UHGV virus genome: UHGV-0142349
Direction: 5' to 3' (one strand)
Length of the DNA: 48,552 nucleotides
DNA from: a virus
The translations under genes were made by a program, and so were the position numbers. How positions within the stretch are numbered: the first letter of the stretch is position 1; each line of letters starts with the position of its first letter. Positions 1 to 48,552 of this stretch are shown here, one piece after another. The notes under the pieces were generated by a model. The model was not told where the DNA came from. It did no database searches and saw only the letters and a program-made list of their open reading frames with translations.

Positions 1-1
1 A

Positions 2-262
2 CATCCGGCCGGGAAATTATTCTGGGCTTTAACGGATGAAAGCAATAAAGAGCAACCGGACGTTATTCCTGTTTATGCTGACTCACCTGCGCCGGTAGTG
101 CCGGATGATGGTCGCGAAAAGTTCGAAGCACTTGTCAGGTTTCATGCGGGTGATAAAAACCATGAAACATTATTGCTTCGTGCCAACGAAGGTATGAATT
201 ACCAGGACCCGAATGTTGATCTGGCGTGGATATTCTGGAAGTCCAGTCGTGAGCATATATAA
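2..262 (+). CDS. 3' end of an upstream gene (partial, hypothetical)
   Basis: Open frame from window edge to TAA at 260-262; translation ends ...RANEGMNYQDPNVDLAWIFWKSSREHI; no recognisable family. Confidence 0.35.
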   Translation, partial: HPAGKLFWALTDESNKEQPDVIPVYADSPAPVVPDDGREKFEALVRFHAGDKNHETLLLRANEGMNYQDPNVDLAWIFWKSSREHI

Positions 263-602
263 GCTGTAGTGAGAAGCCATGCGATTACGAGCAGTATTCA
301 GATATTCAGAGCGGGTAATGAGGCACATACAACCGAAAACATGGCAGAAATTGGATTCTGTGGGAGTTAAGTTGGAGAAGATTACTCAACTTAAGCAGTG
401 GCATATCGGCGAATATTATGGAAGTCCTGGCCGGGATGTTCGTTTGGTAAAAAGTTGAGTATTGTTTTTTTATTGATCAATTAACCACGATTTGAAGGTT
501 TTTTTATGGGAAAACCTTGTTTTAGGTGGTAACTGGGTGTAGTGTTTCATTTAACGTAGTAAAACTGCGTTAAGCGATTACCGCGTAATTTGTTGCTTTA
601 TG

Positions 603-636
603 AAGCCCTGCCTTTTTCGGCGGGGCTTTTTTTTTA
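603..636 (+). terminator. rho-independent terminator immediately upstream of lysis genes
   Basis: GC-rich hairpin (gccctgcc / ggcggggc, one mismatch) followed by a run of 9 T. Confidence 0.55.
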
Positions 637-648
637 ACGAGGATTTCA

Positions 649-1044
649 ATGTCAGCAGAACCAATTTCCGGTACGGCCGTTGCTGCTGGTGGCCTGATGG
701 GTGCCAGTGTTTTTGGTATTGCAACTGGTATTGATTACGGCGTTGTATTCGGGGCATTTGCTGGCGCTGTTTTCTATGTTGCTACAGCGGTGAATATTAG
801 CCGTCTCAAGCTGATTGGCTATTTCTTTACATCGTTCATTGTTGGAGTGATTGGAGCGCCGTTAGTTGGCTCATTTCTTGCCAAATGGACCAGCTACAAC
901 GATCGTCCTCTGGATGCGCTTGGTGCGGTTATTGTGGCTGCATTGACAATTAAAATCCTCACGTTCGTAAACAGCCAGGATCTCGGTAGCATCTTTGGAA
1001 TGCTTTCCCGCTTACGTGGAGGGGGTTCAAATGGTAAGCAGTGA
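649..1044 (+). CDS. putative holin (multi-TMD small membrane protein)
   Basis: 131 aa with about 4 hydrophobic segments; first gene of a cluster followed by endolysin and spanins. Confidence 0.5.
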   Translation: MSAEPISGTAVAAGGLMGASVFGIATGIDYGVVFGAFAGAVFYVATAVNISRLKLIGYFFTSFIVGVIGAPLVGSFLAKWTSYNDRPLDALGAVIVAALTIKILTFVNSQDLGSIFGMLSRLRGGGSNGKQ

Positions 1045-1327
1045 CCCGTCAGCACTGATTAATGCGGTGCTTTGCACAGTAATAGTAATGGCGCTGATGT
1101 TTTATCGACGGAAAGACTCAAGGCATCGTCCATTTGTTTCCTTTCTGGCTTATATCTACGTCATTGTATACGCCAATGTTCCCTTCCGTTACGTGTTCGG
1201 TCTTTATCAAGAATCCCACTGGCTGGTGGTTATTGGAAATCTGATTATCTGCATCGTTGTTCTGTATTTCAGGGGCAATCTGGCGCGGATAGTTGACGCA
1301 TTAGGATTTAATCATGACCAAAGATGA
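1031..1327 (+). CDS. small membrane protein (holin/antiholin-like)
   Basis: ATG 1031 preceded by GGAGGGGG; two hydrophobic segments; overlaps stop of preceding gene; the six-frame track starts this ORF at 995. Confidence 0.4.
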   Translation: MVSSDPSALINAVLCTVIVMALMFYRRKDSRHRPFVSFLAYIYVIVYANVPFRYVFGLYQESHWLVVIGNLIICIVVLYFRGNLARIVDALGFNHDQR

Positions 1328-1856
1328 GATTTTTAACAGCATTCTTGGAAAAGAGGGCGGCTATGTGGATCACCCTGACGACAAGGGAGGCCCAACAAAG
1401 TGGGGCATTACTCAGAGCACTGCCCGTGCTCATGGATACCGTGGCGATATGCGCGATTTAACCCGCGAACAGGCACTGGAAATCCTTGAGGCTGATTACT
1501 GGTACGGACCACGCTTTGATCAGGTTGCCGCATTATCCTCTGATATTGCCGCAGAGCTGTGTGACACGGGGGTGAACATGGGGCCAACAGTGGCGTCAAA
1601 AATGCTTCAACGCTGGCTGAATGTGTTCAACCTGCGCGGGAAGCTGTATCCCGATTTGGATGCAGACGGACGAATCGGTCCACGTACCATTAATGCGCTG
1701 CGTGCTTATCTTGGGAATCGGGGAAAAGACGGCGAACGGGTGATGCTGACGTCGCTGAACTGTACGCAGGGCGAACGCTATCTGGAGTTGGCGGAGAAGC
1801 GCGAGGCTAATGAGTCGTTTGTCTACGGCTGGATGAAAGAGCGAGTGGTGGTATGA
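1314..1856 (+). CDS. endolysin, GH108-type lysozyme with C-terminal peptidoglycan-binding region
   Basis: N-terminal motif EGGYVDHPDDKGGPTKWGIT typical of glycoside hydrolase family 108 phage lysins. Confidence 0.8.
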   Translation: MTKDEIFNSILGKEGGYVDHPDDKGGPTKWGITQSTARAHGYRGDMRDLTREQALEILEADYWYGPRFDQVAALSSDIAAELCDTGVNMGPTVASKMLQRWLNVFNLRGKLYPDLDADGRIGPRTINALRAYLGNRGKDGERVMLTSLNCTQGERYLELAEKREANESFVYGWMKERVVV

Positions 1857-2131
1857 CTGGTTTGAAGGCCGTTTTGTCATTTATTGGCACAATTATATTG
1901 GTTGCATTCGGCGCGTTTGGTTTTGGTCGTATGAAGGGGCGAGAAAAGGCCGAAGATGAAGCTGAAAAGCAGCGCATTAATGAGAATGCAGCCGCCGTAA
2001 AAGCCACTGCGGAGCGGCGTATAGAAGTGACAAAAGAGGTGGGGAATGTACAGCAGAGTGTTAACCATATGGCTGATGACGATGTTGATCGCGAGCTGCG
2101 GGAGTCGTGGAAGCGTCCCGGTGGTGGTTGA
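1853..2131 (+). CDS. i-spanin (Rz-like)
   Basis: N-terminal TMD then charged coiled-coil-like region; immediately after endolysin; overlaps stop of previous gene. Confidence 0.55.
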   Translation: MTGLKAVLSFIGTIILVAFGAFGFGRMKGREKAEDEAEKQRINENAAAVKATAERRIEVTKEVGNVQQSVNHMADDDVDRELRESWKRPGGG

Positions 2132-2819: not shown

Positions 2820-3407
2820 ATGGAGGCAATTGCATTGTTTAATCTGATTTATGCAGATCCCCCCTGGGAATACAAAGACAAGTGTAAGGATGGGAATCGT
2901 GGCGCTGGTTTTAAGTATCCAACGATGAAAGCTGAGGATATTGCTCGTATTCCTGTCTGGCAGCTTGCTAATCCTGAATCGTGTTTGTTGGCCATGTGGT
3001 GGGTTCCGACTCAGCCAGAAGAAGCGTTGCTGGTGGTGAAAGCATGGGGATTCAGGCTGATGACCATGAAGGGCTTCACATGGAACAAATGTGGTAGCCG
3101 ACAACCAGATAAGCTGGTGATGGGGATGGGGCATATGACTCGTGCAAACAGTGAAGATTGCTTGTTTGCGGTAAAAGGCAAACTGCCGACCCGCCTTGAT
3201 GCGGGGATCATTCAGTCGTTTACATCGCCTCGTCTGGAGCATTCTCGGAAGCCTGATGTGGTTCGTGACAAGCTGGTAAGGCTGTTAGGTGATGTTCCCC
3301 GTATTGAGCTGTTTGCTCGCGGTGATTTACCTGATGGCTGGCATGGCTGGGGCAACCAGTGCAATGGAGGTATCCAGTTGCATGATGCTCTCTGGCAAGT
3401 GGCATAG
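2820..3407 (+). CDS. MT-A70 family N6-adenine DNA methyltransferase
   Basis: Catalytic DPPW motif in IYADPPWEY context; size and layout typical of phage Dam-like MT-A70 enzymes. Confidence 0.75.
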   Translation: MEAIALFNLIYADPPWEYKDKCKDGNRGAGFKYPTMKAEDIARIPVWQLANPESCLLAMWWVPTQPEEALLVVKAWGFRLMTMKGFTWNKCGSRQPDKLVMGMGHMTRANSEDCLFAVKGKLPTRLDAGIIQSFTSPRLEHSRKPDVVRDKLVRLLGDVPRIELFARGDLPDGWHGWGNQCNGGIQLHDALWQVA

Positions 3408-5394: not shown

Positions 5395-6018
5395 ATGACA
5401 AAACATCTTAATGTGGTTTCTTTACCACTTTCTGTGTTGATTGGTTATGAAAAGAACGCTCGCACACACTCCGTGGAGCAGGTAGATCAGATTGTTGCCA
5501 GCATACAGGAGTACGGATGGACTAATCCGATCCTGATAGACGAAAGCAACGTTGTAATTGCTGGTCATGGTCGAATTGCTGCGGCCACTCAGTTGGGGAT
5601 GGATGATGTTCCCTGCATTGTTCTGGAAGGGCTAACGGAGAATCAGAAGAAGGCATATCGTCTGGCCGACAACCGTATTCCGCTGAATGCTGGTTGGGAT
5701 GAAGAGTTGTTAAGCGCGGAGCTTGCAGATCTTGCGGCCGATGATTTTGCTCTGGACTCAATTGGTTTTACTCAGCGCGAACTGGATAACTTATTGAGTG
5801 CGGCGGTCTACGATGACACAGAAGGTATGGATATCCCATTTGAGAAGGATGAGGCCAAATCAGGCGTAAAAGTTCAGTACCTGTCATTTGGAGGTCATAA
5901 AATCCCGGCAACGGATGAGGAAGCGGATCGTTTTGACTGCGCGGTATCTCGTTATGTTGATGATAATGGCAGCTATATCGGATTTGTATCCGCATTGCTG
6001 GCAGGGGAGGTGTGCTGA
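5395..6018 (+). CDS. ParB-like nuclease domain protein (paralog 1)
   Basis: N-terminal ParB/Srx-like motifs (NARTHS.EQV, IAGHGRIAAA, KKAYRLADNR); paralogous to 8685..9275. Confidence 0.65.
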   Translation: MTKHLNVVSLPLSVLIGYEKNARTHSVEQVDQIVASIQEYGWTNPILIDESNVVIAGHGRIAAATQLGMDDVPCIVLEGLTENQKKAYRLADNRIPLNAGWDEELLSAELADLAADDFALDSIGFTQRELDNLLSAAVYDDTEGMDIPFEKDEAKSGVKVQYLSFGGHKIPATDEEADRFDCAVSRYVDDNGSYIGFVSALLAGEVC

Positions 6019-7391
6019 TGCTTCACCTGAATTACGACATAACGCACCTACGCGGCGCGGAATATAACCCGCGTTTTATCGGTGAGGATGATCTTGCGAG
6101 GCTGGCGGAAAGCGTCAGGGAGCTGGGGCTTGTGAAGCCATTGATAGTGCGCGGCGATTTGCTGGTGGCGGGACACCAAAGGACGAAGGCGCTACGTAAG
6201 TTGGGAATAACGCGTGCTGCGGTGTATGTGTTGCCCTGTGAAACGACGGTATACGACGAAGTACGGTTTAACCAACTGCATAACGGAACGGATTTTGACA
6301 GCGGAGATGAGCGTTGCAGGGTGTCCGGTCTGGAAGATAAGCATGGTTTTGTTCAGGTATCGGCAAGCCAGATCTCAGGCAATATGCGCGCGAAAATGGC
6401 ATATGTTCGAAAGAACATAGCGGAACTGGTTATCAAGTATGGTCCGTGGGGTGGTTGTGTTGCTACTCAGTCTGGCGAGGTTATTCACTGTGCTCAGTAT
6501 GCATTAGCAGCGAAGATGACGCGCACACCGCTAACGGTGTTTGTGATCCCTGATGTTGAGAAGGAAAAATACCAAAGTTATCTGAATAAAACTTATGGTG
6601 TATTTGAGTATTCTCATCTGGAGAAAACAACATACATCCAGACGTATGCGCAGCTTATGCGGTTGCGTAATGGTGGCAGCCTGAAATCAAACCTGTATGA
6701 GTCGTTGATCCTCCCGATCATTGCCAAGACGCCAAGAGGAATTGATTTTGGTTCGGGTCAGGGAGACTACGCGCGAATGCTCAGGGCAAAGGGATATAAC
6801 CTGCATGATCTTGAGCTTTTCCGCCGTAAGGGCGCTGGAAACACTCTGGATAGGACCGCAACAAACCGGATGATTGATACGCTGGTGGACGACTTAAAAA
6901 CGCGAGGGCGTTACGACTACGTGATTTGCGATAGCGTTTTGAACTCGGTCGATAGTGTCGAGGCTGAATGGTCCGTTCTGACGGTTCTGAAAGGGCTGTG
7001 TAAAGCTGGTGGGTCAATATTCTTTTCTGGCCGTAGCCGTGGAGAGCTGGAAACAGTCCTGAAGCAGACACAAGCGGCGAGTTCCAAAAGCCGGCTTTAT
7101 TTTATTGATCATAACGGTTTTACCGCGTTGTACCGGAAGGGGCACTGGTTTTACCAGAAGTTTCACTCTGATGAGGAAGTGAAGCAGTTGTGTCGTGTAC
7201 ATGGTTTCAGGATTAAGCGGTCAATATTCAACTGTAAGAGCTGGTATTTGCACGTCATTAACGATGATTCCCTTAGTTGGGCGAGTCTGGAGAAAGCTGT
7301 TCGTTTTGAGTTTGAGTTGCCGTTGCCTGGTGGTTCAACAATCGGACGATCTGATGATGTACTGGCGGCTTTCCGGCCGTTGATTAAGTAG
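6012..7391 (+). CDS. ParB-like N-terminal domain fused to class I SAM-dependent methyltransferase-like domain
   Basis: N-term LLVAGHQRTKALRKLG (ParB-like); C-term Rossmann motif I GIDFGSGQGDYA and DYVICDSVL acidic-loop motif. Confidence 0.6.
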   Translation: MLMLHLNYDITHLRGAEYNPRFIGEDDLARLAESVRELGLVKPLIVRGDLLVAGHQRTKALRKLGITRAAVYVLPCETTVYDEVRFNQLHNGTDFDSGDERCRVSGLEDKHGFVQVSASQISGNMRAKMAYVRKNIAELVIKYGPWGGCVATQSGEVIHCAQYALAAKMTRTPLTVFVIPDVEKEKYQSYLNKTYGVFEYSHLEKTTYIQTYAQLMRLRNGGSLKSNLYESLILPIIAKTPRGIDFGSGQGDYARMLRAKGYNLHDLELFRRKGAGNTLDRTATNRMIDTLVDDLKTRGRYDYVICDSVLNSVDSVEAEWSVLTVLKGLCKAGGSIFFSGRSRGELETVLKQTQAASSKSRLYFIDHNGFTALYRKGHWFYQKFHSDEEVKQLCRVHGFRIKRSIFNCKSWYLHVINDDSLSWASLEKAVRFEFELPLPGGSTIGRSDDVLAAFRPLIK

Positions 7392-8127: not shown

Positions 8128-8299
8128 TCATCGTGTGGTTGATGGTGTTGTTATGCAGAGTGTATTCACTGTGTTCTGTAGCGTCGCTCGCTGGCTGTCT
8201 GTGGGGGAGCACGAGCATCGTTTCATCGTCCGGCAGAATTGGGTCCTTCTGGCCAAAAGCGTTGGATGCGGGTCATTCGAACCCCGATGTTCGGCTAGC

Positions 8300-8680
8300 T
8301 AAACGTGAAAAAAGTTAGGTTAAAAGTTGCGGTAAAAGAAATTTACTCATCTCATTGAAAAATATCGGGAAAACGTGATTTTTTGCTGTATTTGTGCTGG
8401 TAAAAAGAAAGTAGAAAATTTTCTTTTAGATCATCAAGATACGCGCAGATCTTTAACCAATGTGATGTTGTTCTGATAAAAATCGTTATAAATCATGCAA
8501 ATACATCCAATCTTTTAACCAAAACACCATCTCAAGATCCTTTTTACTTATAAAAACTTAATAAAATCAGATGATTATGCTGGTTTGTGTGATTTTTTAT
8601 GAGTAAAAAGATCGTCATTTTTCTCTTTTAGTATCAATAAGTTAAACAGTTTTCTTTAACCTGTTGTGTTATGGCGGTTA
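8300..8680. promoter_or_regulatory. AT-rich non-coding region with direct repeats (candidate promoter / packaging cos-like region)
   Basis: About 380 bp without ORFs; imperfect direct repeats GTGATTTTTT..GTAAAAAG..TTCTTTTAG near 8384-8440 and 8588-8640; TCTTT(T)AACCAA repeated. Confidence 0.35.
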
Positions 8681-8684
8681 AAAA

Positions 8685-9275
8685 ATGGCTCTAAAAATCG
8701 AATATTTACCAGTCGGTAAGCTGCTCAGATACGCCAAAAATTCACGGACTCATTCAGATGAGCAAGTTGAACAGTTGGTGAACAGTATCCGTGAGTTCGG
8801 TTTCACTAATCCTGTGCTGATCGATGAAAAGAATGAACTGATTGCGGGGCATGGGCGGCTTGCAGCAGCCGAAATTCTGGAAATGGATAAAGTTCCAGCG
8901 ATTCGGTTGAGTAACCTTTCTGAAAAACAGAAGAAGGCTTACAGGATTGCAGATAACAAGCTGGCCTTAAATGCTGGCTGGGATATGCAGCTTCTGGCCG
9001 AAGAAGTCAAAGCGTTAATGGATGATGATTTTGATATTGATCTGCTTGGGTTTAATGATGCAGAGCTTGACGAAATGTTAAGCGATGAACAGCCGCAGGA
9101 AGAAGACGATAATTCTTCCCCTGTTGTTCAAATTAAGTACCTGGCTATTGATAAAGAACGTATTCCCGCGACGGATATGGAAATTGCATTGTTGCTGGAT
9201 GTTTATCGTCAGTACCACGACGCGCATGAAACGCATGAGGGATTTGTTCAGTATCTTGCTAATGGTTGCAAGTAA
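8685..9275 (+). CDS. ParB-like nuclease domain protein (paralog 2)
   Basis: NSRTHSDEQVEQLV, IAGHGRLAAA, KKAYRIADNKLALNAGWD; collinear with 5395..6018 product. Confidence 0.65.
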   Translation: MALKIEYLPVGKLLRYAKNSRTHSDEQVEQLVNSIREFGFTNPVLIDEKNELIAGHGRLAAAEILEMDKVPAIRLSNLSEKQKKAYRIADNKLALNAGWDMQLLAEEVKALMDDDFDIDLLGFNDAELDEMLSDEQPQEEDDNSSPVVQIKYLAIDKERIPATDMEIALLLDVYRQYHDAHETHEGFVQYLANGCK

Positions 9276-9826: not shown

Positions 9827-9831
9827 ACCTC

Positions 9832-11688: not shown

Positions 11689-11699
11689 AGGAAATATAA

Positions 11700-14567: not shown

Positions 14568-14576
14568 GGTGAGTTT

Positions 14577-14960: not shown

Positions 14961-14980
14961 TATAAAGAGGTCGTATTTTT

Positions 14981-30574: not shown

Positions 30575-30576
30575 AA

Positions 30577-39176: not shown

Positions 39177-39435
39177 TCGAGGCTAATCAAATGGTGGTGA
39201 GCCGTACAGGGTTAGCCTTACCGGACACAATGACGAACCGGCGCGGATTTCTCCGCCCCTGTACGACCCACCATAATTTGGGCGTAACAGTGCTCTACGC
39301 ATAAAAAAACCGCTAACGCGGTATGCGCCATCGTGTTATTCAGGAGGCTAATCCCGACCGTAGATTTTGCTACGGCTCGGAAAGTGTCCACCAATGGCGC
39401 ATTCATGTCAATACGGCGGGATTTTAACAGAGACA

Positions 39436-39448
39436 ACCACATAGCGTG
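39436..39448. promoter_or_regulatory. operator-like site CCACATAGCGTGG upstream of ant operon
   Basis: Matches CCACAT-N3-GTGG motif seen in repressor/cro intergenic region. Confidence 0.45.
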
Positions 39449-39473
39449 GGTTTATTGGTAGGCAGAAACAAAA

Positions 39474-39498: not shown

Positions 39499-39893
39499 TT
39501 CGTGCTGATCGGATTCGCGGTCCTTTCAGCATTACGTTGTTGTATAAACAACCACGCAAGCACAAGCAGCAAATTGATTTTACTCAAAAGGTAATAATAG
39601 TCCACTATTATACATCAAAAAATTGTGGTTCTTGTTGTGTCAGCAAACTCACAGATTGTGGGTAGGTTACTGATTTTGTGAAAATAAACTGTTTTTTTCG
39701 TTTAATTTCTTTCCTATTACTAATCTTAAAATAATCGTAAAATACCTGTGGACCTTCCCGCCGATTCGCACCCGGGCACCGACTTTAGGGGAGGATTTCC
39801 TGTTGCCGTACATGCAAGCACAAGCAGCCGTGCTTGCTCTCGCGTTGTTTTCGTCGGTGGGGATGCCGTGAAACGGCCTGTAAGGGCCATACA

Positions 39894-40016
39894 ATGAAAA
39901 AATACTGTATGTGTATTTTTATCGTTGTTACTGGAGCTTTGTTTACGCCACATGGGGAGGGTTGGAAGATTACTGATAACGCTCTGAATGTGACGATAAA
40001 CATTAGCAGCAAGTAG
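39894..40016 (+). CDS. small hydrophobic protein (40 aa), candidate type I toxin-like peptide
   Basis: MKKYCMCIFIVVTGALFTPHGEGWKITDNALNVTINISSK; followed by terminator at 40022..40045. Confidence 0.3.
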   Translation: MKKYCMCIFIVVTGALFTPHGEGWKITDNALNVTINISSK

Positions 40017-40021
40017 CGATT

Positions 40022-40045
40022 AGGCCCCTTCGGGGGCCTTTTTTA
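40022..40045 (+). terminator. rho-independent terminator
   Basis: ggcccc-ttcg-ggggcc then TTTTTT. Confidence 0.65.
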
Positions 40046-40266: not shown

Positions 40267-40515
40267 TTACTTCTGGTTGTATTGAGCCTTGAGTAACTCA
40301 AAAGATTTTGTCAGCACTTCTTTCAATGACATATCCATTGAGCTGGCGAACGTTTTGTACTCGCGTTTAAATTCAGGGTCGACGTTAAACGCCATTTGTG
40401 CCCCACCTGATTTGGTTCTGGCTGGCGTTTCAGTCGGGTCGAAAACCTGCGGTTGTTCGATCGATGGCGGTACGCCTTTGCTGTTCTTCTTTGGTGGTTT
40501 TGATGGTGCGGCCAT
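40267..40515 (-). CDS. partition protein, ParG-like (ribbon-helix-helix centromere-binding)
   Basis: 82 aa, basic flexible N-terminus, directly downstream of ParA-like ATPase gene (type Ib layout). Confidence 0.5.
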   Translation of the reverse strand: MAAPSKPPKKNSKGVPPSIEQPQVFDPTETPARTKSGGAQMAFNVDPEFKREYKTFASSMDMSLKEVLTKSFELLKAQYNQK

Positions 40516-40527
40516 GTGTATCCCCTC

Positions 40528-40563
40528 TTATATAAATCTATAAAACTATAATTATATATTACG
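40528..40563. repeat. AT-rich near-palindromic motif copy
   Basis: TTATATAAATCTATAAAACTATAATTATATATTAC. Confidence 0.5.
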
Positions 40564-41212
40564 CGGCAGTAGTCAGAGCCTCAAGCTGGTTGATAATCCC
40601 CTGAATAACGTCGTCTGCCTTTTTGCGTGGCGCAACGTATGAGCATTCAATGAGGCTTAAGCCCTTATCCTGAGCTTTGCTCAGAGCTGGCTTGTGGGGA
40701 ATGTACTTATCGACAACAAAGTATGGCGTATTAGCCAGGTACTCTTGGGCTTCAATGTAGTCGGCTTCGTTTTCAGCCGCGCCTGAGAACACCATGCAAA
40801 TTTTCTTGATTGGCACACCCTTTTTAACGATGCCATGAGCTGTGTTAACGGTGGTTTCCAGGTCATCGGTAGAGAATCTGGTTGGCAAAATAACCATATC
40901 CAGAAATTCAGAGAGCTTCGGTACTGATTCAGATGCGTAGGCACCGCCATCGACGATAACCAGGTCGTATACTTCTGATTCGATGATTTTCTGGACTTGT
41001 GATGGCGTGCCGCACGGCTGCGCCGCGATTGCAGGTTCGATATTGTTGGCCATTCTGCGTTGTACCCAACGCGTTACCGTTCCGTTAAGCACATCCATAT
41101 CGATCAGGCATACATTCCAGCCGGCCTTTGCATAAGCAACTGCTAAAGCACGGGCAATTGTTGATTTGGTTACGCCGCCTTTTCCGTTGAAAATACCTAC
41201 AGAGATAGTCAT
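40559..41212 (-). CDS. partition ATPase ParA (small ParA/ParF-like, Walker type)
   Basis: Deviant Walker A GKGGVTKST; start at ATG 41212 (SD GGAG upstream) rather than track start 41227. Confidence 0.7.
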   Translation of the reverse strand: MTISVGIFNGKGGVTKSTIARALAVAYAKAGWNVCLIDMDVLNGTVTRWVQRRMANNIEPAIAAQPCGTPSQVQKIIESEVYDLVIVDGGAYASESVPKLSEFLDMVILPTRFSTDDLETTVNTAHGIVKKGVPIKKICMVFSGAAENEADYIEAQEYLANTPYFVVDKYIPHKPALSKAQDKGLSLIECSYVAPRKKADDVIQGIINQLEALTTAA

Positions 41213-41235
41213 TTGTCGAGACTCCATGTGTTTGG

Positions 41236-41340
41236 TTATATAATTATATAAATCTATATTTATAGAACGAGGTAAGCATAACCAACTTTTTGGCGGATGA
41301 AAAGCGTTTTATATAATTATATAAATCTATAATCATATAA
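41236..41340. repeat. two direct copies of AT-rich motif upstream of parA (candidate centromere/operator)
   Basis: TTATATAATTATATAAATCTATA at 41236-41258 and 41308-41330. Confidence 0.55.
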
Positions 41341-41829: not shown

Positions 41830-42486
41830 TCATAACCAGTTGACAACACTAACTACGCGGCCAAGAACTTTATAACGCTTAAATTCCTCGTTATTCAGAT
41901 GCTTAGTGTTCATTTCAGCATCCCTTTCGGTTGACAGCATAACAGCATTGTCACCCGGTATGACTCTACAGTGCCTCAAAACAACCAGGCCATTTCTGTC
42001 TTCAAGGGCATAGATCCCCTCATGAATCTCTGTATCGTCTGTATCAATCAGGACTTGGGAGCCAGGGGATATTGTTGGTGACATTAACTCATCGTTGCTC
42101 TGGAGAACTGACAGAGACGATGGGTTGATGTTCTTGCTTCGTAGAATCTCCTGTTCTATCGCCAGCACTGGCTTTTCTCCGGCGTGCGATGCTATGTCAT
42201 TTTTTATAGCTACAAGCCCAGGAATAACAGGAGCGTTAGTATTCTGGGGTGGGAACGGGTTATCTGTTAAGCACGCGATATAAGGCGCTGATGCTTTCAG
42301 GGCGTGCGCGATTTTCTTGATGGCAGGTATAGATGGTTGTCTTAATCCGGCCTCATAGTTCTGCAAGGTGCTTAAGCCTATTCCAGTGACTTGCTGGAGA
42401 TCTCCGGCAGTCATGCCGGATTGTTTCCGTAGAGTCTGAATGCGCAGACCTATTTCTTTCTTGATGTTCTCGTCGTTGCTTTTCAT
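41830..42486 (-). CDS. CI-like repressor (N-terminal HTH, C-terminal S24/LexA-like peptidase domain)
   Basis: HTH in the N-terminal part and an S24-like C-terminal domain; divergent from Cro-like gene. Confidence 0.75.
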   Translation of the reverse strand: MKSNDENIKKEIGLRIQTLRKQSGMTAGDLQQVTGIGLSTLQNYEAGLRQPSIPAIKKIAHALKASAPYIACLTDNPFPPQNTNAPVIPGLVAIKNDIASHAGEKPVLAIEQEILRSKNINPSSLSVLQSNDELMSPTISPGSQVLIDTDDTEIHEGIYALEDRNGLVVLRHCRVIPGDNAVMLSTERDAEMNTKHLNNEEFKRYKVLGRVVSVVNWL

Positions 42487-42523
42487 GTCTCATCAATCGT
42501 GAATGGTGGGTTATTTATACATT

Positions 42524-42641
42524 ACCACATTTAGTGGTTTTCACATGGTAAGACGAGAGGTGGACCACAAATAGAAGGTTATTTTTTGTTTCGCCCATTG
42601 AAAAACTCACGATATGTGGTTTTAATACCACATATCGTGGT
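42524..42641. promoter_or_regulatory. operator region with inverted-repeat sites (CCACAT-N3-GTGG type)
   Basis: ACCACATTTAGTGGT (42524-42538); CACGATATGTGG (42608-42619) and CCACATATCGTGG (42628-42640) form a larger palindrome. Confidence 0.55.
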
Positions 42642-42660
42642 TTTAACTGGAGTTCGTTAA

Positions 42661-43155
42661 ATGACCTTTCAGGAGTGGGTTGACGAAAATGGAGGCCAAA
42701 TTGGTGTTGCCAGAAAGTTTGGCTTTACGTCATCACTGATTGGTGCCTGGTATCGCTTCGAGAGATTCCCTCGTGCGGATAACCTGACGCTGCTGGTGGC
42801 GTATTCGGAAGGCCGGATTAACGTCCAGCAATGGGCGGCAGATTTTGCCGAACGTCAGCGCCAGCGTAGCGATGGCACATCGGTTCGGCAGAACAAGATC
42901 AAAGGGAACCTCCCTGTTAACTGCTTATCAAGGCTGAAAGCGGTTTTCTCTGAGCTGGGGATGCCTGCGGAGCGTTGCAATCTACGCGGTCCGCGATTCA
43001 TTGCTCGCTGGAAACACTCACACGTAACCGTTTCAGAGGTTCGTGATGCGATTACCGTGCTGGAGCTTAAGAATAAAGATTCCAGCGATATCGAGCTGAT
43101 TCATAAGGAGATTAGCAACGCCCGGCGTTCAGCACTTGGGAGGCTTGAGGAATGA
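42661..43155 (+). CDS. Cro/YdaS-like HTH regulator (first gene of rightward early operon)
   Basis: ENGGQIGVARKFGFTSSLIGAWYR resembles Cro/YdaS-type HTH; divergent from repressor. Confidence 0.4.
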   Translation: MTFQEWVDENGGQIGVARKFGFTSSLIGAWYRFERFPRADNLTLLVAYSEGRINVQQWAADFAERQRQRSDGTSVRQNKIKGNLPVNCLSRLKAVFSELGMPAERCNLRGPRFIARWKHSHVTVSEVRDAITVLELKNKDSSDIELIHKEISNARRSALGRLEE

Positions 43156-43667
43156 TGATTCTGGCCTTCTTTGGTGATAATCACCAGATTCAATCGCAGG
43201 TGGTGCACTACCTTGATCAAACGATTAAAGGATTTGTTATCGATCATATTGATAACGATAGCAAACATCTATCTGTAGATCAGAAAATTGGACGTGTGCA
43301 GCGACTGGTTGCCAGCCGTAACAGACGTGACACCGTCACAGTAGTCACGGGGATAACGGAGGTCATGGAGTACCAGATGTTGCTGCATCGTGGAGCTGTT
43401 TTCTGCGTTCTTCCTGGCATTCTGCCAGCAATTCTTGCTCGTGGTTTTGTCCCTATTGATGAGTCGTTTTTATATGTAACCCCAAGCCGTTCCCTTCTGG
43501 ATACGGAGGCGAAGCGTCGCATTTATATGATGCCGGACGAGGCATTTTCTGAATGTTACCGCCGTGAAATGAGGTTGGGTAAACGAGAAGTGTCTGTTGT
43601 TCGTGATGGCAGGTTTTTAAGAAGCCGCACGGTGAAAAGCACCAGAAATGACGGGGGCCATCAATGA
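43152..43667 (+). CDS. hypothetical protein
   Basis: 171 aa ORF with overlapping start. Confidence 0.4.
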   Translation: MMILAFFGDNHQIQSQVVHYLDQTIKGFVIDHIDNDSKHLSVDQKIGRVQRLVASRNRRDTVTVVTGITEVMEYQMLLHRGAVFCVLPGILPAILARGFVPIDESFLYVTPSRSLLDTEAKRRIYMMPDEAFSECYRREMRLGKREVSVVRDGRFLRSRTVKSTRNDGGHQ

Positions 43668-43897
43668 GTAGTTATGTTCGCGGTGCTGCGATGCATTGCC
43701 AGAATCCCCAATTCTGGCGCTTTCTGACCAGTAAAACAGGGAAGAACGTTTCAAACAGTTCTGAGGCCTCTGTGATTCTGCGTGAGTTTTGCGGGATCTC
43801 ATCCCGTAAAGAGCTGGCAAAGAACTACGCGGCCAGAAGCATGTATGTCCAGTTAATCAACGAGTTCAACCTCTTTATCAATGGTAAGGGGCGCTGA
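43664..43897 (+). CDS. hypothetical protein
   Basis: 77 aa. Confidence 0.3.
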   Translation: MSSYVRGAAMHCQNPQFWRFLTSKTGKNVSNSSEASVILREFCGISSRKELAKNYAARSMYVQLINEFNLFINGKGR

Positions 43898-44301
43898 TGA
43901 ACGGACGTACACCAACGAAGAAAGAGAAACTTTATATACAAGCGGTGCTCACTCACGTGGGTTGCATAGCTTGCATTATTGATGGCCGTGAAATTGAGAA
44001 TCCAGAGCTGTGGACGGAGCTACATCACGATCCTGATTACGGCAGCGTTGATGAGAATTGCCACTTCCATAGCTTTGGGTTGTGCGCACCACATCATCGC
44101 GGTGTTGTGCCTGGTGGTGGGCGCGTGCCTCCGCATATTGCCGTTCGTCACCCTCCCCTGAGTAATTGTGCTCGCTTTGTTGAGCGTTATGGCACCGATG
44201 AATTTTTGTGTGCGCAGACGTGGGAGCTGTTGCCGCAGTCAGTTAAAGACGAAATTGGGTTTGATCTTAGTCTTGGTGAAGTACCAGGGGATACCAAATG
44301 A
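43897..44301 (+). CDS. Cys/His-rich putative zinc-binding nuclease-like protein (NinG/Ref-like, tentative)
   Basis: Pattern HVGCIACI..HHDPDYG..NCHFHSFGLCAPHHRG. Confidence 0.35.
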   Translation: MNGRTPTKKEKLYIQAVLTHVGCIACIIDGREIENPELWTELHHDPDYGSVDENCHFHSFGLCAPHHRGVVPGGGRVPPHIAVRHPPLSNCARFVERYGTDEFLCAQTWELLPQSVKDEIGFDLSLGEVPGDTK

Positions 44302-44630
44302 GATATACCGGCTTTCGCAAACCAGCGACCAGGAAAAGCAAATACGGCAATAAAAAAACGGTTGTCGATGATATCGCTTTTGATAGCAAAAAAGAGGCTG
44401 ATTACTACTGCGAACTGAAGCTACTGAGAAAAGCTGGCCGCGTTGTGACGTTTCTTATGCAGGTGCCTTTTAATCTGCCAGGTGGTGTCGTTTATAAACT
44501 TGATTTCATGGTGTTTTATGACGATGGGACGATTGATTGTGTCGACACTAAAGGTGTGCGAACAGACGTCTACATCATGAAGAAAAAGCAGGTAGAGGCG
44601 CTTTATCCCGTCACGATACGGGAGATCTGA
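44298..44630 (+). CDS. DUF1064-like protein (phage nin-region family)
   Basis: YGNKKTVVDDIAFDSKKEADYYCELKLLRKAG and VDTKGVRTDVY match the family signature as I recall it. Confidence 0.6.
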   Translation: MRYTGFRKPATRKSKYGNKKTVVDDIAFDSKKEADYYCELKLLRKAGRVVTFLMQVPFNLPGGVVYKLDFMVFYDDGTIDCVDTKGVRTDVYIMKKKQVEALYPVTIREI

Positions 44631-44633
44631 ACA

Positions 44634-45011
44634 GTGAGACGCGATCTGGATAGCTTGTTTGAGCTATGGGCGCTGTGGGTGCGCAATGGCTGCAACGCCC
44701 GTAGCGGTTTCGCGTCGATGTTAGAAATGATGATGGTTACGCGTTGCCAGTTTACCGGAGGGGGCGGCGCACCAAATGACTCACTGGAAACCAGTATCGA
44801 GGGAGCGGTGACGGCCCTCACGGTAGTTGATGAGACTGCGGCGCTGGTTGTCCGAATTGAATACGGGGCGTGGGAGATTCGGGGCCTCGACATAAATGCA
44901 CCGCATATTGATAAAGCCCACGCCCTTTCTCTTAGTCTCAGACAGTATCGCCGGAAGCTGGCAAAAGCCAGGGCGTATGTTGTCGACTATTTGAAAAAGC
45001 GAAGAGAGTGA
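44634..45011 (+). CDS. hypothetical protein, possibly antitermination Q-like (low confidence)
   Basis: N-terminal LxxWxxW pattern and position after DUF1064 gene. Confidence 0.25.
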   Translation: MRRDLDSLFELWALWVRNGCNARSGFASMLEMMMVTRCQFTGGGGAPNDSLETSIEGAVTALTVVDETAALVVRIEYGAWEIRGLDINAPHIDKAHALSLSLRQYRRKLAKARAYVVDYLKKRRE

Positions 45012-45064
45012 AAGTGTCATTTTGAGCTGTTTTGATGGTGTGTAGACATCGGGAACATCGAAAA

Positions 45065-45180
45065 TCTATAAATATATAATTATAGATTTATATAAAAAGT
45101 GCTTTACAGGTGGGAAAAAATTTCCTAAGGTTATACCCGAAACCGAGCGATACCCGCCCTGGTTAAACCGGAGAAATCTG
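45065..45180 (+). promoter_or_regulatory. promoter-leader cassette copy C
   Basis: AT-rich palindrome, -35 TTTACA, -10 TAAGGT, conserved leader; diverges only in last 7 nt before ATG. Confidence 0.6.
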
Positions 45181-46248
45181 ATGAATAAACAAGTAATTAT
45201 TTCTGACTGGATCAACAACCCTAACAGCCTGTTAAGCACTGATACTGGCTACCTATTACGCCATGTTAATGGTCGTATGGTCAAAAGCGATGAGCACGAA
45301 ACCTTTTTCTTTGTTGAAGACGATGGGCGCATCTATGAGGATGGTTACTCTTATGAAGCCCAAACTGGTTGTATCCCTGCGGAGCTGGTGGACGTAACAG
45401 AAGATCTGCGCAAAGCATGGCTTGAACAGCAGCAGCGCGGAGATGATTACGTAAACACCTATCAGGAACGCCAGAACGCGCGTCTTGCCCGATATATTGC
45501 TCGTGCAGAAAAAGCCAGAAAAGAAGGTGCGGTAGCGCATAAGCGAGCGCATGACCTGTTGGATGTGATCCCGTTAGGCCAGCCGATTTTAGTTGACCAT
45601 TATAGCGCGAAAGGCCATCGCCGCCGTTTGTCTAAAGCTGATGCGTTATTCAGAAAAGCGTTTGTTGAATGCGAAAGTAAAGCATCACACTACGAGAGCA
45701 AAGCCGCAGGTGTTGGTCGTAATGGAATTTCGTCTGATGATCCTGATGCGCTATTTAAGTTGCTTCGTAAGCTGCAAGGCTGCATGAAGTCACACGTCAA
45801 AATGAAGGCCGCAAATAAGGCCATTCGCAAATACAAAAAAGACCAATTACAGCAGCTTTCTGCATTAATCGATCTCAGGTTTACAGAAAGCGAAGCCAAA
45901 GAGTTACTGGCCGGAGATTTCTGTGGGCACATCGGATTCCCTTCATACGCACTGAGCAACAATAAGGCCGAAATCAAACGACTACAGAGCCGTATTAAGG
46001 AGCTTGAATCGGTCAAGTCTGTAACAGGAGCACAGCGCGAAGAATACGACGGCTTTTCTATGGAGATAGATCCAGAGGATAACCGCATCCTGTTTTATTT
46101 CCCTGGCAAACCAGAGGCAAACATTCGTTCGCTGCTTAAATCACGCGCCTTTAAGTGGAGTCCAACCCGTAATGCATGGGTTCGTAAGATTACTCCAAAC
46201 GCCCTGGCTGATGCCCGATATCTGAAAGAATCGCTATTGAAAGCCTGA
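45181..46248 (+). CDS. hypothetical protein (cassette-driven, 355 aa)
   Basis: ORF begins right after conserved leader; no family recognised. Confidence 0.5.
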   Translation: MNKQVIISDWINNPNSLLSTDTGYLLRHVNGRMVKSDEHETFFFVEDDGRIYEDGYSYEAQTGCIPAELVDVTEDLRKAWLEQQQRGDDYVNTYQERQNARLARYIARAEKARKEGAVAHKRAHDLLDVIPLGQPILVDHYSAKGHRRRLSKADALFRKAFVECESKASHYESKAAGVGRNGISSDDPDALFKLLRKLQGCMKSHVKMKAANKAIRKYKKDQLQQLSALIDLRFTESEAKELLAGDFCGHIGFPSYALSNNKAEIKRLQSRIKELESVKSVTGAQREEYDGFSMEIDPEDNRILFYFPGKPEANIRSLLKSRAFKWSPTRNAWVRKITPNALADARYLKESLLKA

Positions 46249-46257
46249 CAGTAAGCC

Positions 46258-46281
46258 TACGGCGGGATGTCTCCCGCCGTA
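46258..46281 (+). terminator. hairpin terminator
   Basis: tacggcgggatgtctcccgccgta. Confidence 0.45.
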
Positions 46282-46312
46282 TATAGAATTATATATTTAT
46301 ATAAATGTATAA
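46280..46312. repeat. AT-rich near-palindromic motif copy
   Basis: TATATAGAATTATATATTTATATAAATGTATAA. Confidence 0.5.
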
Positions 46313-46325
46313 GGACGCCTCGACA

Positions 46326-46607
46326 ATGAAACGCAAAATTATTAACCCCCAAGATGTGATTAATTTCCTGACCGATCACCCATGTTCAAAAGTGGACGTA
46401 ATCGCGGAGCACATTGGTGTGTCGCAGAACTCTATGCGTTGCAGACTGAGAAGCATGGTTGCCGAAGGACAGATAACAACCAGGAAAATAAATGGTTGCC
46501 TGTACTACTCCGCTAAACCGGAATTGCCATTTGGCATGAATCCTAACTCCATGTTGTTTAACACCTTATTAGCCAAAGTTAAGCCGTTGAGAGGGGCTGT
46601 GGCATGA
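46326..46607 (+). CDS. hypothetical protein
   Basis: Start ATG 46326 chosen over track start 46305, which lies in the AT-rich motif. Confidence 0.4.
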   Translation: MKRKIINPQDVINFLTDHPCSKVDVIAEHIGVSQNSMRCRLRSMVAEGQITTRKINGCLYYSAKPELPFGMNPNSMLFNTLLAKVKPLRGAVA

Positions 46608-46969
46608 GCATCAAAACCCATACCGGAATAATCATTACCAATGATGGTGAGAAAAGAGTGAAGTTGCGCGAAACGCCGACAACCTGGTGTGTTGGTCCGA
46701 AAGAAACATATCGCAAGGAAGATGGCCGTCGTTGTGGGGCACCACTTTCCCGCCGTCGCCTCCTTTTAAGCACGATAAAACCTATCGGGCAGTTTGAGCA
46801 ACCAACGACTCCGGTAACGAAGATTTCAGACAAGAGTCTGGCAAACCTGATCGCTGATGCGGACAAGGTACTGGAGAGGAACACCCCAGTAGCCAATGAG
46901 GAATGGTGGCAGGATTTCCGAGCCGCAATGCTAGAGCTTCAGGAACGTCGTCGGGAGGAGTTGAAGTGA
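46604..46969 (+). CDS. hypothetical protein
   Basis: 121 aa, overlapping start. Confidence 0.4.
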   Translation: MSIKTHTGIIITNDGEKRVKLRETPTTWCVGPKETYRKEDGRRCGAPLSRRRLLLSTIKPIGQFEQPTTPVTKISDKSLANLIADADKVLERNTPVANEEWWQDFRAAMLELQERRREELK

Positions 46970-47157
46970 GCAAGAAAAATGCCGGATGGGTCAGGCCAAT
47001 GAAGGCGAATAAACATCATTATTTTAATGAAGATGAAGTAACCAGCATTTGCGGCCGTTGGATGTATTTTGGTGATTACCGTGAGCCAGACACTTTTGAG
47101 AGTCCTGATGATTGCGTGTCTTGTCGCCGGAAATTGAACAAGGTGGCTTCTAAATGA
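46966..47157 (+). CDS. small Cys-containing protein (putative zinc ribbon)
   Basis: GTG 46966 with GGAGG upstream; CGRW..CVSCRR. Confidence 0.35.
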   Translation: MSKKNAGWVRPMKANKHHYFNEDEVTSICGRWMYFGDYREPDTFESPDDCVSCRRKLNKVASK

Positions 47158-47771
47158 AAGAACGTGGTGTTGTTTTTAATGACGATATGGTTAGGGCCAT
47201 CCTCGAAGGAAGGAAGACGCAGACTCGCCGACCTGTAAAAAATGTCAGGGCCGATAACTGCCTGGTTATCCGTAAACCGACAAAGAAACGCAATGGTGTC
47301 TATACCCACGTTATGGATGCACCTGAACATGGTTTATGCCCGTTCGGTAACGTTGGTGATCGCATATGGGTCCGTGAAACATTCAACGCTTTTTGGCTGG
47401 ATAACGATGTCATTCAGGAAATCAAAGATGGTGTCTCTCTGGCTTCTGAACTGTGTGATTACAAGGCTGATTACTCAGATAGTAGCAAGCCAGCTGAGGG
47501 CTGGACCCCGTCGATTCACATGCCACGTTGGGCCAGCCGCATTCTGTTGGAAATAACCGACGTGCGTGTGGAACGGCTGCATGACATGAGCGAGGCAGAT
47601 GCTAAAGCTGAAGGCGCATCTCCGGCGACGTACAAAATTACACCGCCGGAAGCTGTTTATCGTGTTGGCTTTGGTGATATCTGGCGCGGTATTTACGGGC
47701 AAGAGAACTGGCTATCTAACCCGTGGGTATGGGTAATTGAGTTTAAGCGTATTCAGGAGGGCAACCAGTGA
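47154..47771 (+). CDS. conserved phage protein (ASCH/PUA-like, tentative)
   Basis: N-terminal MVRAILEGRKTQTRRP resembles ASCH GxKTxExR motif. Confidence 0.4.
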   Translation: MKERGVVFNDDMVRAILEGRKTQTRRPVKNVRADNCLVIRKPTKKRNGVYTHVMDAPEHGLCPFGNVGDRIWVRETFNAFWLDNDVIQEIKDGVSLASELCDYKADYSDSSKPAEGWTPSIHMPRWASRILLEITDVRVERLHDMSEADAKAEGASPATYKITPPEAVYRVGFGDIWRGIYGQENWLSNPWVWVIEFKRIQEGNQ

Positions 47772-48331
47772 GTAACCAATGGCGACCAGATATTTGCCCT
47801 ATAACCGGACGTGCATTTTTCATGTGGATTGAGCATCCGGAATTGGGAAATGTACCGACGTACGGTGGCCCATTAGACAGTTACACCATTCCAACAAAGG
47901 ACGGTGACGGTGAGTTTTCATGTGAGCGTTACGATCATGATTTCGGCGGTTGGGTAGAAAGCGAATGTCTTGGGTTATATCTGATTGATGATAAAGAGCA
48001 ATGCAGAGTCTACGAACTGGAGGAACGCGTTAAGGAGCTGGAAGCGCGGGAAATAAAACCAGCCAAAGGTGAAGTTCTTGTCGTTGTATCTGGTTTTACT
48101 GGTTGCGGAAAAAGCGCCATTGCCGGGGAAATAGAAATTGCGATGAAGGCTATTGGTGTACCGGTTCAGTGGACTAATGGCGATGCAGAAAAGCGCATGA
48201 CTGGTGCTGACTGGCTGACAGCAATTGAGATGTACAAACCAACTGTGCGCATCGTGGAAGTTAATGTGCCACGCGTCGCTGGCATTCGCATCAAAGGAGA
48301 CGCAGGAGAGCAAAACGATGAAAAACCGTAA
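47768..48331 (+). CDS. hypothetical protein with P-loop (Walker A) motif
   Basis: GFTGCGKS Walker A-like motif in C-terminal half. Confidence 0.4.
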   Translation: MSNQWRPDICPITGRAFFMWIEHPELGNVPTYGGPLDSYTIPTKDGDGEFSCERYDHDFGGWVESECLGLYLIDDKEQCRVYELEERVKELEAREIKPAKGEVLVVVSGFTGCGKSAIAGEIEIAMKAIGVPVQWTNGDAEKRMTGADWLTAIEMYKPTVRIVEVNVPRVAGIRIKGDAGEQNDEKP

Positions 48332-48509
48332 GGCAAAGATGCTGATAGCAAAGCCCGGGCAGCGTATCCGTATCTCAAATCGGCTTGTTATTTACTATAG
48401 ATATCTGGGTTTTAGGGGGTGTTCCTCTATTCGTTTTTACGGTGTCTGGCGGAGCAGAAGCGCGGCGCAAAACCGCTGGAAAAACCACTTGCGCACTAAA
48501 GGAGAGTGA
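48318..48509 (+). CDS. hypothetical small basic protein
   Basis: ATG 48318 overlapping previous stop; 63 aa. Confidence 0.25.
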   Translation: MKNRKAKMLIAKPGQRIRISNRLVIYYRYLGFRGCSSIRFYGVWRSRSAAQNRWKNHLRTKGE

Positions 48510-48510
48510 T

Positions 48511-48552
48511 ATGGCGTTAACACACCGCGAACTCTGTCAGATTGCGTACAAG
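48511..48552 (+). CDS. 5' end of a gene (partial)
   Basis: ATG 48511 preceded by AAGGAGAG; open to window edge. Confidence 0.3.
   Translation, partial: MALTHRELCQIAYK

Follow-up and report, generated by a model that had tools for sequence, protein, structure and literature searches.

A temperate Escherichia coli myovirus, very probably maintained as a low-copy circular plasmid of about 49 kb with an IncFII-family replicon

The viral genome UHGV-0142349, a stretch of 48,552 nucleotides that was analysed at its full length and is here called the window, very probably comprises about 98.7% of the genome of a temperate E. coli myovirus of about 49.2 kb, the lysogen of which is a low-copy circular plasmid, that is, a phage-plasmid. 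This notion is based on the observation that one molecule links complete and intact lysis, packaging, head, tail and fibre genes to an IncFII-family RepA, a ParA and a toxin-antitoxin pair, as judged from Pfam, PHROGs and NCBIfam (Table 1). The complete virion, packaging and lysis gene set is thereby found on the same molecule as plasmid replication and partition genes (RepA and ParA), and the element appears extrachromosomal and devoid of integration machinery, although the circle of the window itself is not closed. A preliminary description of this DNA had proposed a mosaic architecture of the phage-plasmid kind; its inventory of modules was recovered at the same places by the family searches, and its overall reading is supported by relatives that are closed circular plasmids with the same gene order and without integrase. 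The architecture is real yet ordinary for its kind, since the element is a distinct lineage of a well-known type and the lineage is already common in public sequence data.

For the family searches 83 non-overlapping open reading frames (ORFs, about 15.1 k residues) were concatenated for a Pfam scan, and single genes were then compared with Pfam, PHROGs and NCBIfam. No match to a Phage_integrase, protelomerase or excisionase family was obtained among the 83 ORFs, and such genes are likewise unlisted in the PGAP annotation of the relatives. The earlier statement that integrase, excisionase and att core are lacking accordingly holds for these ORFs and for integrase-type att sites, but a dif-like Xer site is present. 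Nearly all long ORFs are on the plus strand, except for the silent fibre genes and a group at 36-42.5 kb.

Table 1. Features of the 48,552-nt window, with sub-features listed below the module to which they belong (a point marks features given without strand)
Feature	Position	Strand	Basis or remarks
Accessory ORF, 3' part, cut by window edge	1..262	+	First 108 bases 99% identical to phage P7 upf89.5, 93% to Stx phages
Lysis cassette	649..2131	+	Pfam and annotation of relatives
Two holins (Phage_holin_8, Phage_holin_3_7)	649-1327	+	Pfam
GH108 + PG_binding_3 endolysin	1314-1856	+	Pfam
Spanin-like ORF	in lysis cassette	+	Pfam or annotation of relatives
tRNA, CAT anticodon	2425..2500	+	Met, or Ile2 after lysidine modification; between lysis genes and methylase
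MT-A70 DNA methyltransferase	2820..3407	+	Pfam
Two ParB_N-domain proteins, second fused to Methyltransf_23	5395..7391	+	Pfam, NCBIfam
Candidate cos / terminase recognition region	8260..8684	.	Inference from G+C-rich stretch followed by A+T-rich, repeat-bearing spacer
Packaging and head module	8685..16024	+	Pfam, PHROGs
TerS	9266-9826	+	PHROG 57, E 7e-42
gpA-type TerL	9832-11688	+	E 1e-84 and 1e-75
DUF6148	between TerL and portal	+	Pfam
Lambda-family portal	11936-13510	+	E 2e-100
ClpP-type prohead protease	13479-14567	+	Family search
gpD-like decoration protein, weak	14577-14960	+	E 0.002, below cutoff
gpE-family major capsid protein	14981-16024	+	E 3e-54
Four head-tail connector / completion genes	16025..17534	+	Family search of single genes
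Contractile tail and baseplate	17534..27074	+	Pfam, PHROGs
Sheath	17534-18997	+	PHROG 23, E 8e-96; no Pfam match
FII tube, chaperone pair, tape measure, gpX-like, gpD, gpV, gpU, gpW/gp25, gpJ and gpI homologues	up to 27074	+	Family searches
Expressed tail fibre (constant N-part, variable C-part) and assembly chaperone	27105..30012	+	Pfam
Invertible segment, 3,074 bp	28462..31535	.	gix-like inverted repeats 28459-28510 and 31484-31535
Silent alternative fibre C-terminus and chaperone	30041..31524	-	Pfam
Gin/Cin/Hin-type serine DNA invertase (Resolvase + HTH_7)	31606..32160	+	Pfam, NCBIfam
repA control region	32157..32470	.	Promoter-like site, palindrome, predicted countertranscript
Promoter-like site	32157-32184	.	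In repA control region
Palindrome CCACGTAACGTGG	32292-32304	.	In repA leader
Predicted countertranscript	~32470 to 32342	-	Long stem-loop, terminator hairpin and U-run
IncFII-family replication initiator RepA	32342..33319	+	Pfam IncFII_repA PF02387, E 2e-42
Candidate oriR	33320..33600	.	A+T-rich; one perfect DnaA box TTATCCACA at 33461-33469
dif/cer-like XerCD site GGTGCCGATAA-CGTCCA-TTATGTTAAAT	34679..34706	+	XerD arm as in E. coli dif; 6-bp spacer
Toxin-antitoxin pair, HigBA order	34776..35428	+	Gp49/RelE-superfamily toxin (PF05973, E 2e-21), then HTH_3 antitoxin
P1 immI-like antirepressor operon	37684..39449	-	Operator, isrK/a1b1-like leader, C4, 75-aa ORF, antirepressor
ORF6N + pRha antirepressor	37684-38952	-	Pfam
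75-aa ORF	38949-39176	-	In antirepressor operon
C4 antisense RNA	39190-39278	-	Rfam
isrK / a1b1-like leader	39303-39389	-	Rfam
ryfA/timP-like type I toxin locus	39748..40044	+	Rfam ryfA, full-length match, 143 bits
Partition locus	40267..41331	-	Repeats, ParA, 82-aa protein
82-aa protein	40267-40515	-	Disordered tail and two helices
Small ParA, 222 aa	40559-41227	-	CbiA/ParA/MipZ Pfam matches
Two 23-bp direct repeats, candidate centromere	41309-41331, 41236-41258	-	Upstream of parA
CI-like prophage repressor	41830..42486	-	Pfam; HTH_3 and degenerate S24-like C-terminal domain
Divergent control region	42487..42660	.	CCAC-N5-GTGG at 42525 and 42628; one-mismatch copy at 42607
Early (lytic) operon	42661..48331	+	164-aa first gene, Ref-type RecA-dependent nuclease, DUF1064, DUF3560, small accessory ORFs
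ORF start, 14 codons, cut by window edge	48511..48552	+	171-aa ORF common in lambdoid prophages

Relatives and genomic location

More than 40 circular, non-mobilizable E. coli plasmids of 47-49 kb cover at least 80% of window positions 1-25000 at 98-99% identity, and 226 of the 235 records matching this part are typed as non-mobilizable, while the second half of the window matches the same plasmids at 97-98% identity with gaps at a few cassettes. NZ_CP020497.1 (48,172 bp, circular) is a full relative with identical gene order and without integrase. Near-identical genomes of about 49 kb have furthermore been deposited as the Yersinia phages vB_YpM_39, vB_YpM_41 and vB_YpM_44 (OR545053-55; deposited host Y. 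pestis EV76-CN), which also bear the same RepA, ParA and toxin-antitoxin genes, and over window positions 8685-27074 all 23 structural ORFs equal those of OR545054 in length and order, at 99.1% identity over 20.5 kb. When set against the 47-49 kb E. coli plasmids, NZ_CP020497.1 and the ATCC 25922 plasmid NZ_CP009073.1 among them, and against the three phages, the window is seen to hold the same element with a backbone of 97-99% DNA identity, the differences being confined to the level of cassettes, namely the fibre tips, the presence of the invertase, the version of the antirepressor and the small ORFs near the window ends. That infectious particles are released is suggested indirectly by the phage records of genomes 97-99% identical to the window, in which Y. 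pestis EV76-CN is named as host.

The head module is found in 72 of 5,426 complete E. coli genomes, with 80 of its 81 places on plasmid records, and the repA region in 71, with all of its 82 places on plasmids and none chromosomal. Since these counts match, the head and repA modules evidently travel together, and indeed they co-occur almost 1:1 on replicons of 31-57 kb. About 1.3% of complete E. coli genomes, that of the reference strain ATCC 25922 among them, contain the lineage. One assembly of this strain, NZ_CP032086.1 (94,204 bp), contains the element twice in one record, which may be a plasmid dimer or an assembly artefact.

Citrobacter freundii and C. amalonaticus have more distant homologues of the repressor (61-67% identity) on contigs of 46-48 kb, and others are found on contigs of Klebsiella aerogenes, Salmonella and Yokenella, the Salmonella, Klebsiella and Yokenella sequences being compared as contig excerpts of 15-20 kb. 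The Citrobacter and Salmonella loci share with the window a backbone of repressor, 125-aa ORF, ParA, 82-aa ORF, Rha-type gene, toxin-antitoxin pair, RepA and invertase, and the Klebsiella and Yokenella loci are shorter, stopping ahead of the toxin-antitoxin pair and RepA.

The window ends

Both edges of the window cut genes, as the preliminary description had noted. Its suggestion that the genome continues or closes on itself is right in so far as the two ends are adjacent in the circular relatives, where the right end runs via the record origin into the left end with intervening small ORFs that vary from plasmid to plasmid, but the window is not closed and about 0.63 kb appears to be missing. 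The circularity of this copy consequently rests on its relatives of 47-49 kb, which are closed circles.

The ORF begun in the last 42 bases of the window (MALTHRELCQIAYK...) continues as ...FLKRNGFKV in 120 IMG/VR viral contigs, in 94 of which it is 171 aa long, and none of the 120 continues into the first bases of the window. In more than 20 of these contigs the end of the window and its first 108 bases are found in the same orientation, at a distance of 628 bp in about half of them and of 643 bp in most others. The simplest reading is that the source molecule holds the whole end cassette and that the window lacks about 0.63 kb of this cassette, which would give a circle of about 49.2 kb, a size within the range of the family. 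A repeat-induced break of a short-read contig at this lambdoid cassette is a plausible cause of the missing stretch. The cassette at the window ends (1-108 and 48498-48552) is common to lambdoid, Stx and P7-type phages (loci L091, L058, L056, L120 and others).

Repressor, operators and antirepressor

The repressor matches S24 with an E-value of 6e-4 and 20.0 bits, which is below the cutoff of 23.3. In an alignment with lambda CI, P22 C2, LexA and UmuD it has an invariant Leu-Met where these proteins have Ser-Met and no Lys at the position of the catalytic Lys, and this arrangement is fixed in 12 homologues. The S24-like domain is degenerate and probably non-cleaving. What had been described as a LexA-like repressor/antirepressor switch therefore retains its two components, a CI-like repressor and an ORF6N-Rha antirepressor, but with no Ser/Lys pair it does not appear LexA-like in mechanism. 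Since the repressor is without this pair, induction would probably proceed by way of the antirepressor and not by RecA-driven self-cleavage. LexA boxes were also looked for: a lone CTGT-N8-ACAG lies within a structural gene, at least one such match is obtained in 35 of 100 shuffles, and CTG-N10-CAG does not occur in control regions.

The palindrome CCAC-N5-GTGG is present at 6 sites against 0.5 expected, a twelve-fold excess, and none of 100 shuffles reaches 6. Five of the six are located in control regions, two of them in the intergenic region between the repressor gene and the early operon and the remaining three at 41774, 39437 and 32292. The site at 41774 is found just downstream of the repressor gene, beside a TTGACA and upstream of a 124-aa ORF flanked by the repressor gene and parA, and that at 39437-39449 abuts the antirepressor operon. 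All five are kept in the relatives L001 (NZ_CP020497.1) and L002, and in relatives with a repressor of about 65% identity the early-promoter, repressor-downstream and repA-upstream sites are kept while their spacer bases differ. We infer that these palindromes are operators of the repressor, the one in the repA leader included. The repressor would thus hold lysogeny by acting at the early promoter, the antirepressor operon, the region upstream of the 124-aa ORF and the repA leader. The remaining copy of the palindrome is found at 27271.

The antirepressor operon has the layout of P1 immI, with a C4 RNA upstream of a small ORF and the antirepressor. In Rfam the C4 RNA scores 70.8 bits (cutoff 45) and the isrK leader 65.7 bits (cutoff 50), and the a1b1 target reaches 35.7 bits, which is below its cutoff of 46.7. 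RNA of this P1-type C4/isrK kind may gate synthesis of the antirepressor. The antirepressor itself occurs in several versions, being a 422-aa fusion of ORF6N and Rha in the window, a 380-aa ORF6N protein in ATCC 25922 (L128, 11462-12604) and a 238-aa Rha protein in NZ_CP020497.1 (L001, 37924-38640).

The replicon and its control region

The designation of RepA as IncFII-like is borne out by PF02387 and by the NCBIfam model RepA_IncFII_LM (NF040977), which is passed with 231 bits against a cutoff of 70. The true start is likely to be Met44 at 32471, since the relatives are called at 277 aa. The antisense strand of the 130 nt before Met44 is predicted to form a long stem-loop and a hairpin followed by UUUUUGUUU (-70.7 kcal/mol, z-score -8.4); in four diverged relatives this stretch is conserved above its flanks, and 3 compensatory pairs are found in its two hairpins. 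By position and shape only, the predicted RNA may be called a CopA-like countertranscript. A match of the repA leader to the Rfam family Thr_leader was discarded as spurious, reflecting the hairpins. No ORF that could represent copB is present in the approximately 180 nt between the invertase gene and the long repA ORF. Replication would begin at the oriR-like region downstream of repA, and the copy number would be set by the countertranscript acting against the repA leader. The single DnaA box of this region is not significant, as at least one occurs in 32 of 100 shuffles. As for a dedicated replication protein, the early operon offers a single hint, the C-terminal half of the DUF3560 protein (45181-46248), which matches a PHROG 'primase' family (E 3e-36).

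It is conceivable, if on the doubtful side, that the prophage repressor also governs the plasmid replicon by way of the operator in the repA leader and so replaces CopB. A single origin would then be copy-controlled in lysogeny and give runaway lytic amplification once the C4-RNA-gated antirepressor removes the repressor. No description of a phage repressor wired to an IncFII-type replicon was found in the literature searched, and if true this link would tie a plasmid replicon to a lysis-lysogeny switch in a compact manner.

Partition, multimer resolution and addiction

The preliminary designation of the partition genes as ParA/ParG stands for the small Walker-type ParA, which scores 78.5 with the ParA_partition model (cutoff 180), but the supposed ParG, a protein of 82 aa, has no detectable similarity to ParG. 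This protein gave no match in Pfam, NCBIfam or a PDB sequence search and only noise with Foldseek, and all its homologues are found within this family of elements. In a structure model the N-terminal half, which is basic, is disordered and the C-terminal part forms two helices, a layout that fits a ParG-like protein. Segregation would be brought about by ParA and the 82-aa protein acting on the 23-bp repeats.

The dif-like site is contained in none of 100 shuffles and is kept at the same position in all relatives examined, those of the Citrobacter type included, with the diverged ones differing by one base of the central region. It is likely that multimers are resolved here by the host XerCD recombinases. 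The predicted toxin-antitoxin pair agrees in family and gene order with its earlier naming as HigBA, and the ryfA/timP-type locus, within which a 38-aa hydrophobic ORF is found at 39894-40010, may represent another addiction module. Plasmid-free cells would be killed by the HigBA-like pair and possibly by the timP-like toxin too. In the Salmonella relative a HicAB pair is found in place of the HigBA-like pair (L135, 15968-16649), a cassette swap at a fixed position.

Weighing the alternatives

The alternative named in the preliminary description was an ordinary integrated prophage with an acquired plasmid replicon, for which integrase, att sites and chromosomal flanks would have to lie directly beyond the window. 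It could be argued from the fact that both edges cut genes, with sequence continuing beyond them, and from one of the 81 head-module places in complete E. coli genomes, which is on a chromosome record, but it is very unlikely in view of the circular relatives of 47-49 kb, which hold the whole gene set without integrase and in which the window ends are adjacent. Furthermore, what would be expected to join the ends is 628 bp of an accessory phage cassette, and the repA region, chromosomal in none of the 5,426 genomes, is on plasmids in all 82 places. An assembly chimera of phage and plasmid contigs is harder still to defend and can practically be dismissed: the window does end in sequence that is repeated in many lambdoid prophages, and the G+C content of the modules differs (38-43% in the tail genes as against 46-50% elsewhere), but the module junctions are the same in dozens of plasmids that were closed independently, several separate assemblies of ATCC 25922 among them, and long reads across the tail-fibre/repA and ParA/repressor junctions already exist for relatives.

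A somewhat better case, although an improbable one as well, can be made for a phage-derived plasmid that is defective in this copy, being kept as a plasmid while infectious particles are lost. Degenerate members of the family do exist, since shortened records of 31-39 kb are known and the fibre genes are broken in pHN68-3. In NZ_CP173475.1 (12195-19700), the closest relative, the head region is 100% identical to that of the window and IS1203 is inserted within the terminase gene, and some copies of the family are therefore locked in as plasmids. In the window, however, neither an IS element nor a frameshift is seen, and its 23 structural ORFs, lysis genes and terminase are full length and collinear with OR545054 (99.1% over 20.5 kb).

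A number of points weigh against a functional phage-plasmid of the proposed kind. The window has no terminal overlap, its joined ends are contiguous in no record and neither cut gene is rebuilt by joining them, and the one chromosomal place of the head module is absent among the matches listed. RepA is far under the cutoff of the classical incFII_RepA equivalog TIGR03474 (78.6 as against 446.9 bits), the Rfam CopA model is unmatched in the window even at E-values up to 1, and the naming of the 82-aa protein as ParG is a positional guess only. Likewise, the S24-like fold of the repressor is unconfirmed, with pLDDT below 50 in the C-terminal half of the AlphaFold model and an hhalign probability of 31%; the control regions contain no LexA box, and no trigger of the antirepressor was identified. 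Finally, no experiment on this lineage was found in the literature searched, and virion production rests on the GenBank phage records. Nonetheless a temperate phage that is maintained as a circular plasmid remains by far the most probable identity of the element.

Tail and invertible fibre segment

The tail had been described as a P2-like contractile tail, and P2-family genes are indeed found by Pfam, but the gene order (sheath to D, followed by V-W-J-I-fibre) is Mu-like and not P2-like when compared with the P2 and Mu maps. The Mu-like invertible fibre of the same description is well founded. As in switches of the Din family, a serine invertase, inverted crossover sites and two opposed sets of fibre tip and chaperone are all present, the repeats are gix-like, and at the DNA level 92-95% identity is found between the segment and its counterparts in Mu G, D108 and P1 C. 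In L128 and L130, two plasmids of the ATCC 25922 lineage, a segment of 3,071 bp (2806-5876 and 2803-5873, respectively) is inverted at 99.97% identity between flanks that are 99.9% identical, with the overlaps falling at the inverted repeats, and both orientations thus exist in otherwise identical plasmids. Since L128 and L130 differ by this inversion, we can conclude that the fibre switch is active in this family, the inversion having been observed in relatives rather than in this copy, which has the orientation of plasmid p25POL-A. The Gin-like invertase would toggle between two fibre tips and hence between host ranges. Some relatives are without the invertase and the second fibre set altogether.

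The G+C content is 38-43% over the head and tail genes (window positions 13000-27000) and 45-50% in the early, lysis and plasmid regions, a contrast that fits modules of differing origin.

Lysis, modification, packaging and head genes

The claim of a lambda-like packaging and head module is borne out at the level of protein families only, since the capsid protein is at most 46% identical to those of isolated phages outside the lineage in the phage collection searched; moreover, the protease is of the ClpP type and the gpD match is weak. The deposited genome of OR545054 opens at window position 8270/8271, and a lambda-type terminase would cut and package the DNA at a cos site near 8.27 kb.

The MT-A70 methylase and three ParB_N proteins, the third at 8685-9275, precede the packaging genes, and the set probably serves in DNA modification or anti-restriction and not in partition. 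A PADLOC search of the window returned only methyltransferase models and a weak NsnC match (E 6e-7) to the Gp49/HigB-like toxin, and no defence system. The counterpart of the tRNA is labelled tRNA-Ile in pN10e and tRNA-Met in vB_YpM_41.

Significance and comparison with known systems

Phage-plasmids spread genes both by infection and by plasmid inheritance, and the tools used for typing them are limited to a few groups, namely P1, SSU5, N15, AB and cp32. Recognising the present lineage would accordingly help the annotation of plasmids and prophages, and it offers a small and tractable model of a plasmid replicon wired into a phage switch. The discovery is nevertheless a modest one, as the type of element is known and its sequences had already been made public. 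No paper naming or studying the lineage was found in the literature searched, the coverage of which is incomplete, so that the absence of such a paper is unproven.

Members of the SSU5 supergroup are about 100 kb in size. No SSU5-group record was found among the listed DNA matches, and no comparison of SSU5 core genes was made. The name pSLy3 was considered for the family and rejected, since pSLy3 belongs to the SSU5 supergroup as described previously (PMC7969092). The 'pseudolysogenic' Y. pestis phage HQ103, the record of which is 31,962 bp, is absent among the matches listed, and no direct comparison with it was made.

The closest parallels in life style are P1 and P7, which likewise are temperate myoviruses kept as low-copy plasmids with Rep, Par and addiction functions of their own. 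With P1 the element furthermore shares an invertible fibre segment with a Cin/Gin-type invertase (94-95% identical in DNA), an immI-type module with a C4 antisense RNA ahead of the antirepressor, a Ref-type nuclease and repressor operators scattered over the genome, which are predicted in the present case. With about 49 kb, however, it is half the size of the P1 backbone of about 90-100 kb, and there is no DNA similarity to P1 and P7 beyond the fibre segment and the 108-bp fragment. A lambda-type cos terminase of the gpA type is found instead of P1 pac headful packaging. In place of the P1 RepA/iteron replicon there is an IncFII-family RepA, and P1 ParA/ParB has its counterpart in a small ParA and its 82-aa partner; a host Xer site is found instead of Cre-lox, with no Cre-type recombinase among the Pfam matches, and a CI-like repressor instead of C1, and no separate lytic replicon is seen. 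Membership in the P1-like phage-plasmids, which would entail C1, RepA/ParAB, Cre-lox and a Pac terminase, was accordingly rejected.

N15, like the present element, pairs a lambda-like structural module with functions for plasmid maintenance; one and the same RepA of N15 is used for plasmid as well as lytic replication, and its induction involves an antirepressor. The element differs by being circular, by its contractile tail, by a Rep of another family and by having neither protelomerase nor telomere site, and membership in the N15-like telomere phages was rejected in view of the circular relatives and the lack of a protelomerase among the Pfam matches. Mu shares with the element an invertible segment (G in Mu) of about 3 kb with gix-like repeats, two fibre C-termini with chaperones and an adjacent invertase (Gin in Mu), at 92-93% DNA identity, but the present phage is non-transposing and both the constant part of its fibre and the remaining genome are unrelated to Mu in DNA.

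As regards the replicon, the IncFII plasmids R1 and R100 resemble the element in a RepA of PF02387, in a leader countertranscript, predicted here, with stem-loops and terminator, and in having, downstream of repA, an A+T-rich, origin-like region that contains a DnaA box. They differ from it in that its RepA passes RepA_IncFII_LM and fails the classical incFII equivalog, in that no Rfam CopA match is found, and in that copB is missing and a palindrome of the phage-repressor type is found in the leader instead. In Salmonella, finally, the Gifsy-1 prophage has the gene order isrK-orf45-anrP, in which an isrK-type RNA likewise precedes a small ORF and an antirepressor gene; to this arrangement the present element adds a full C4 RNA, and it carries the module on a plasmid prophage.

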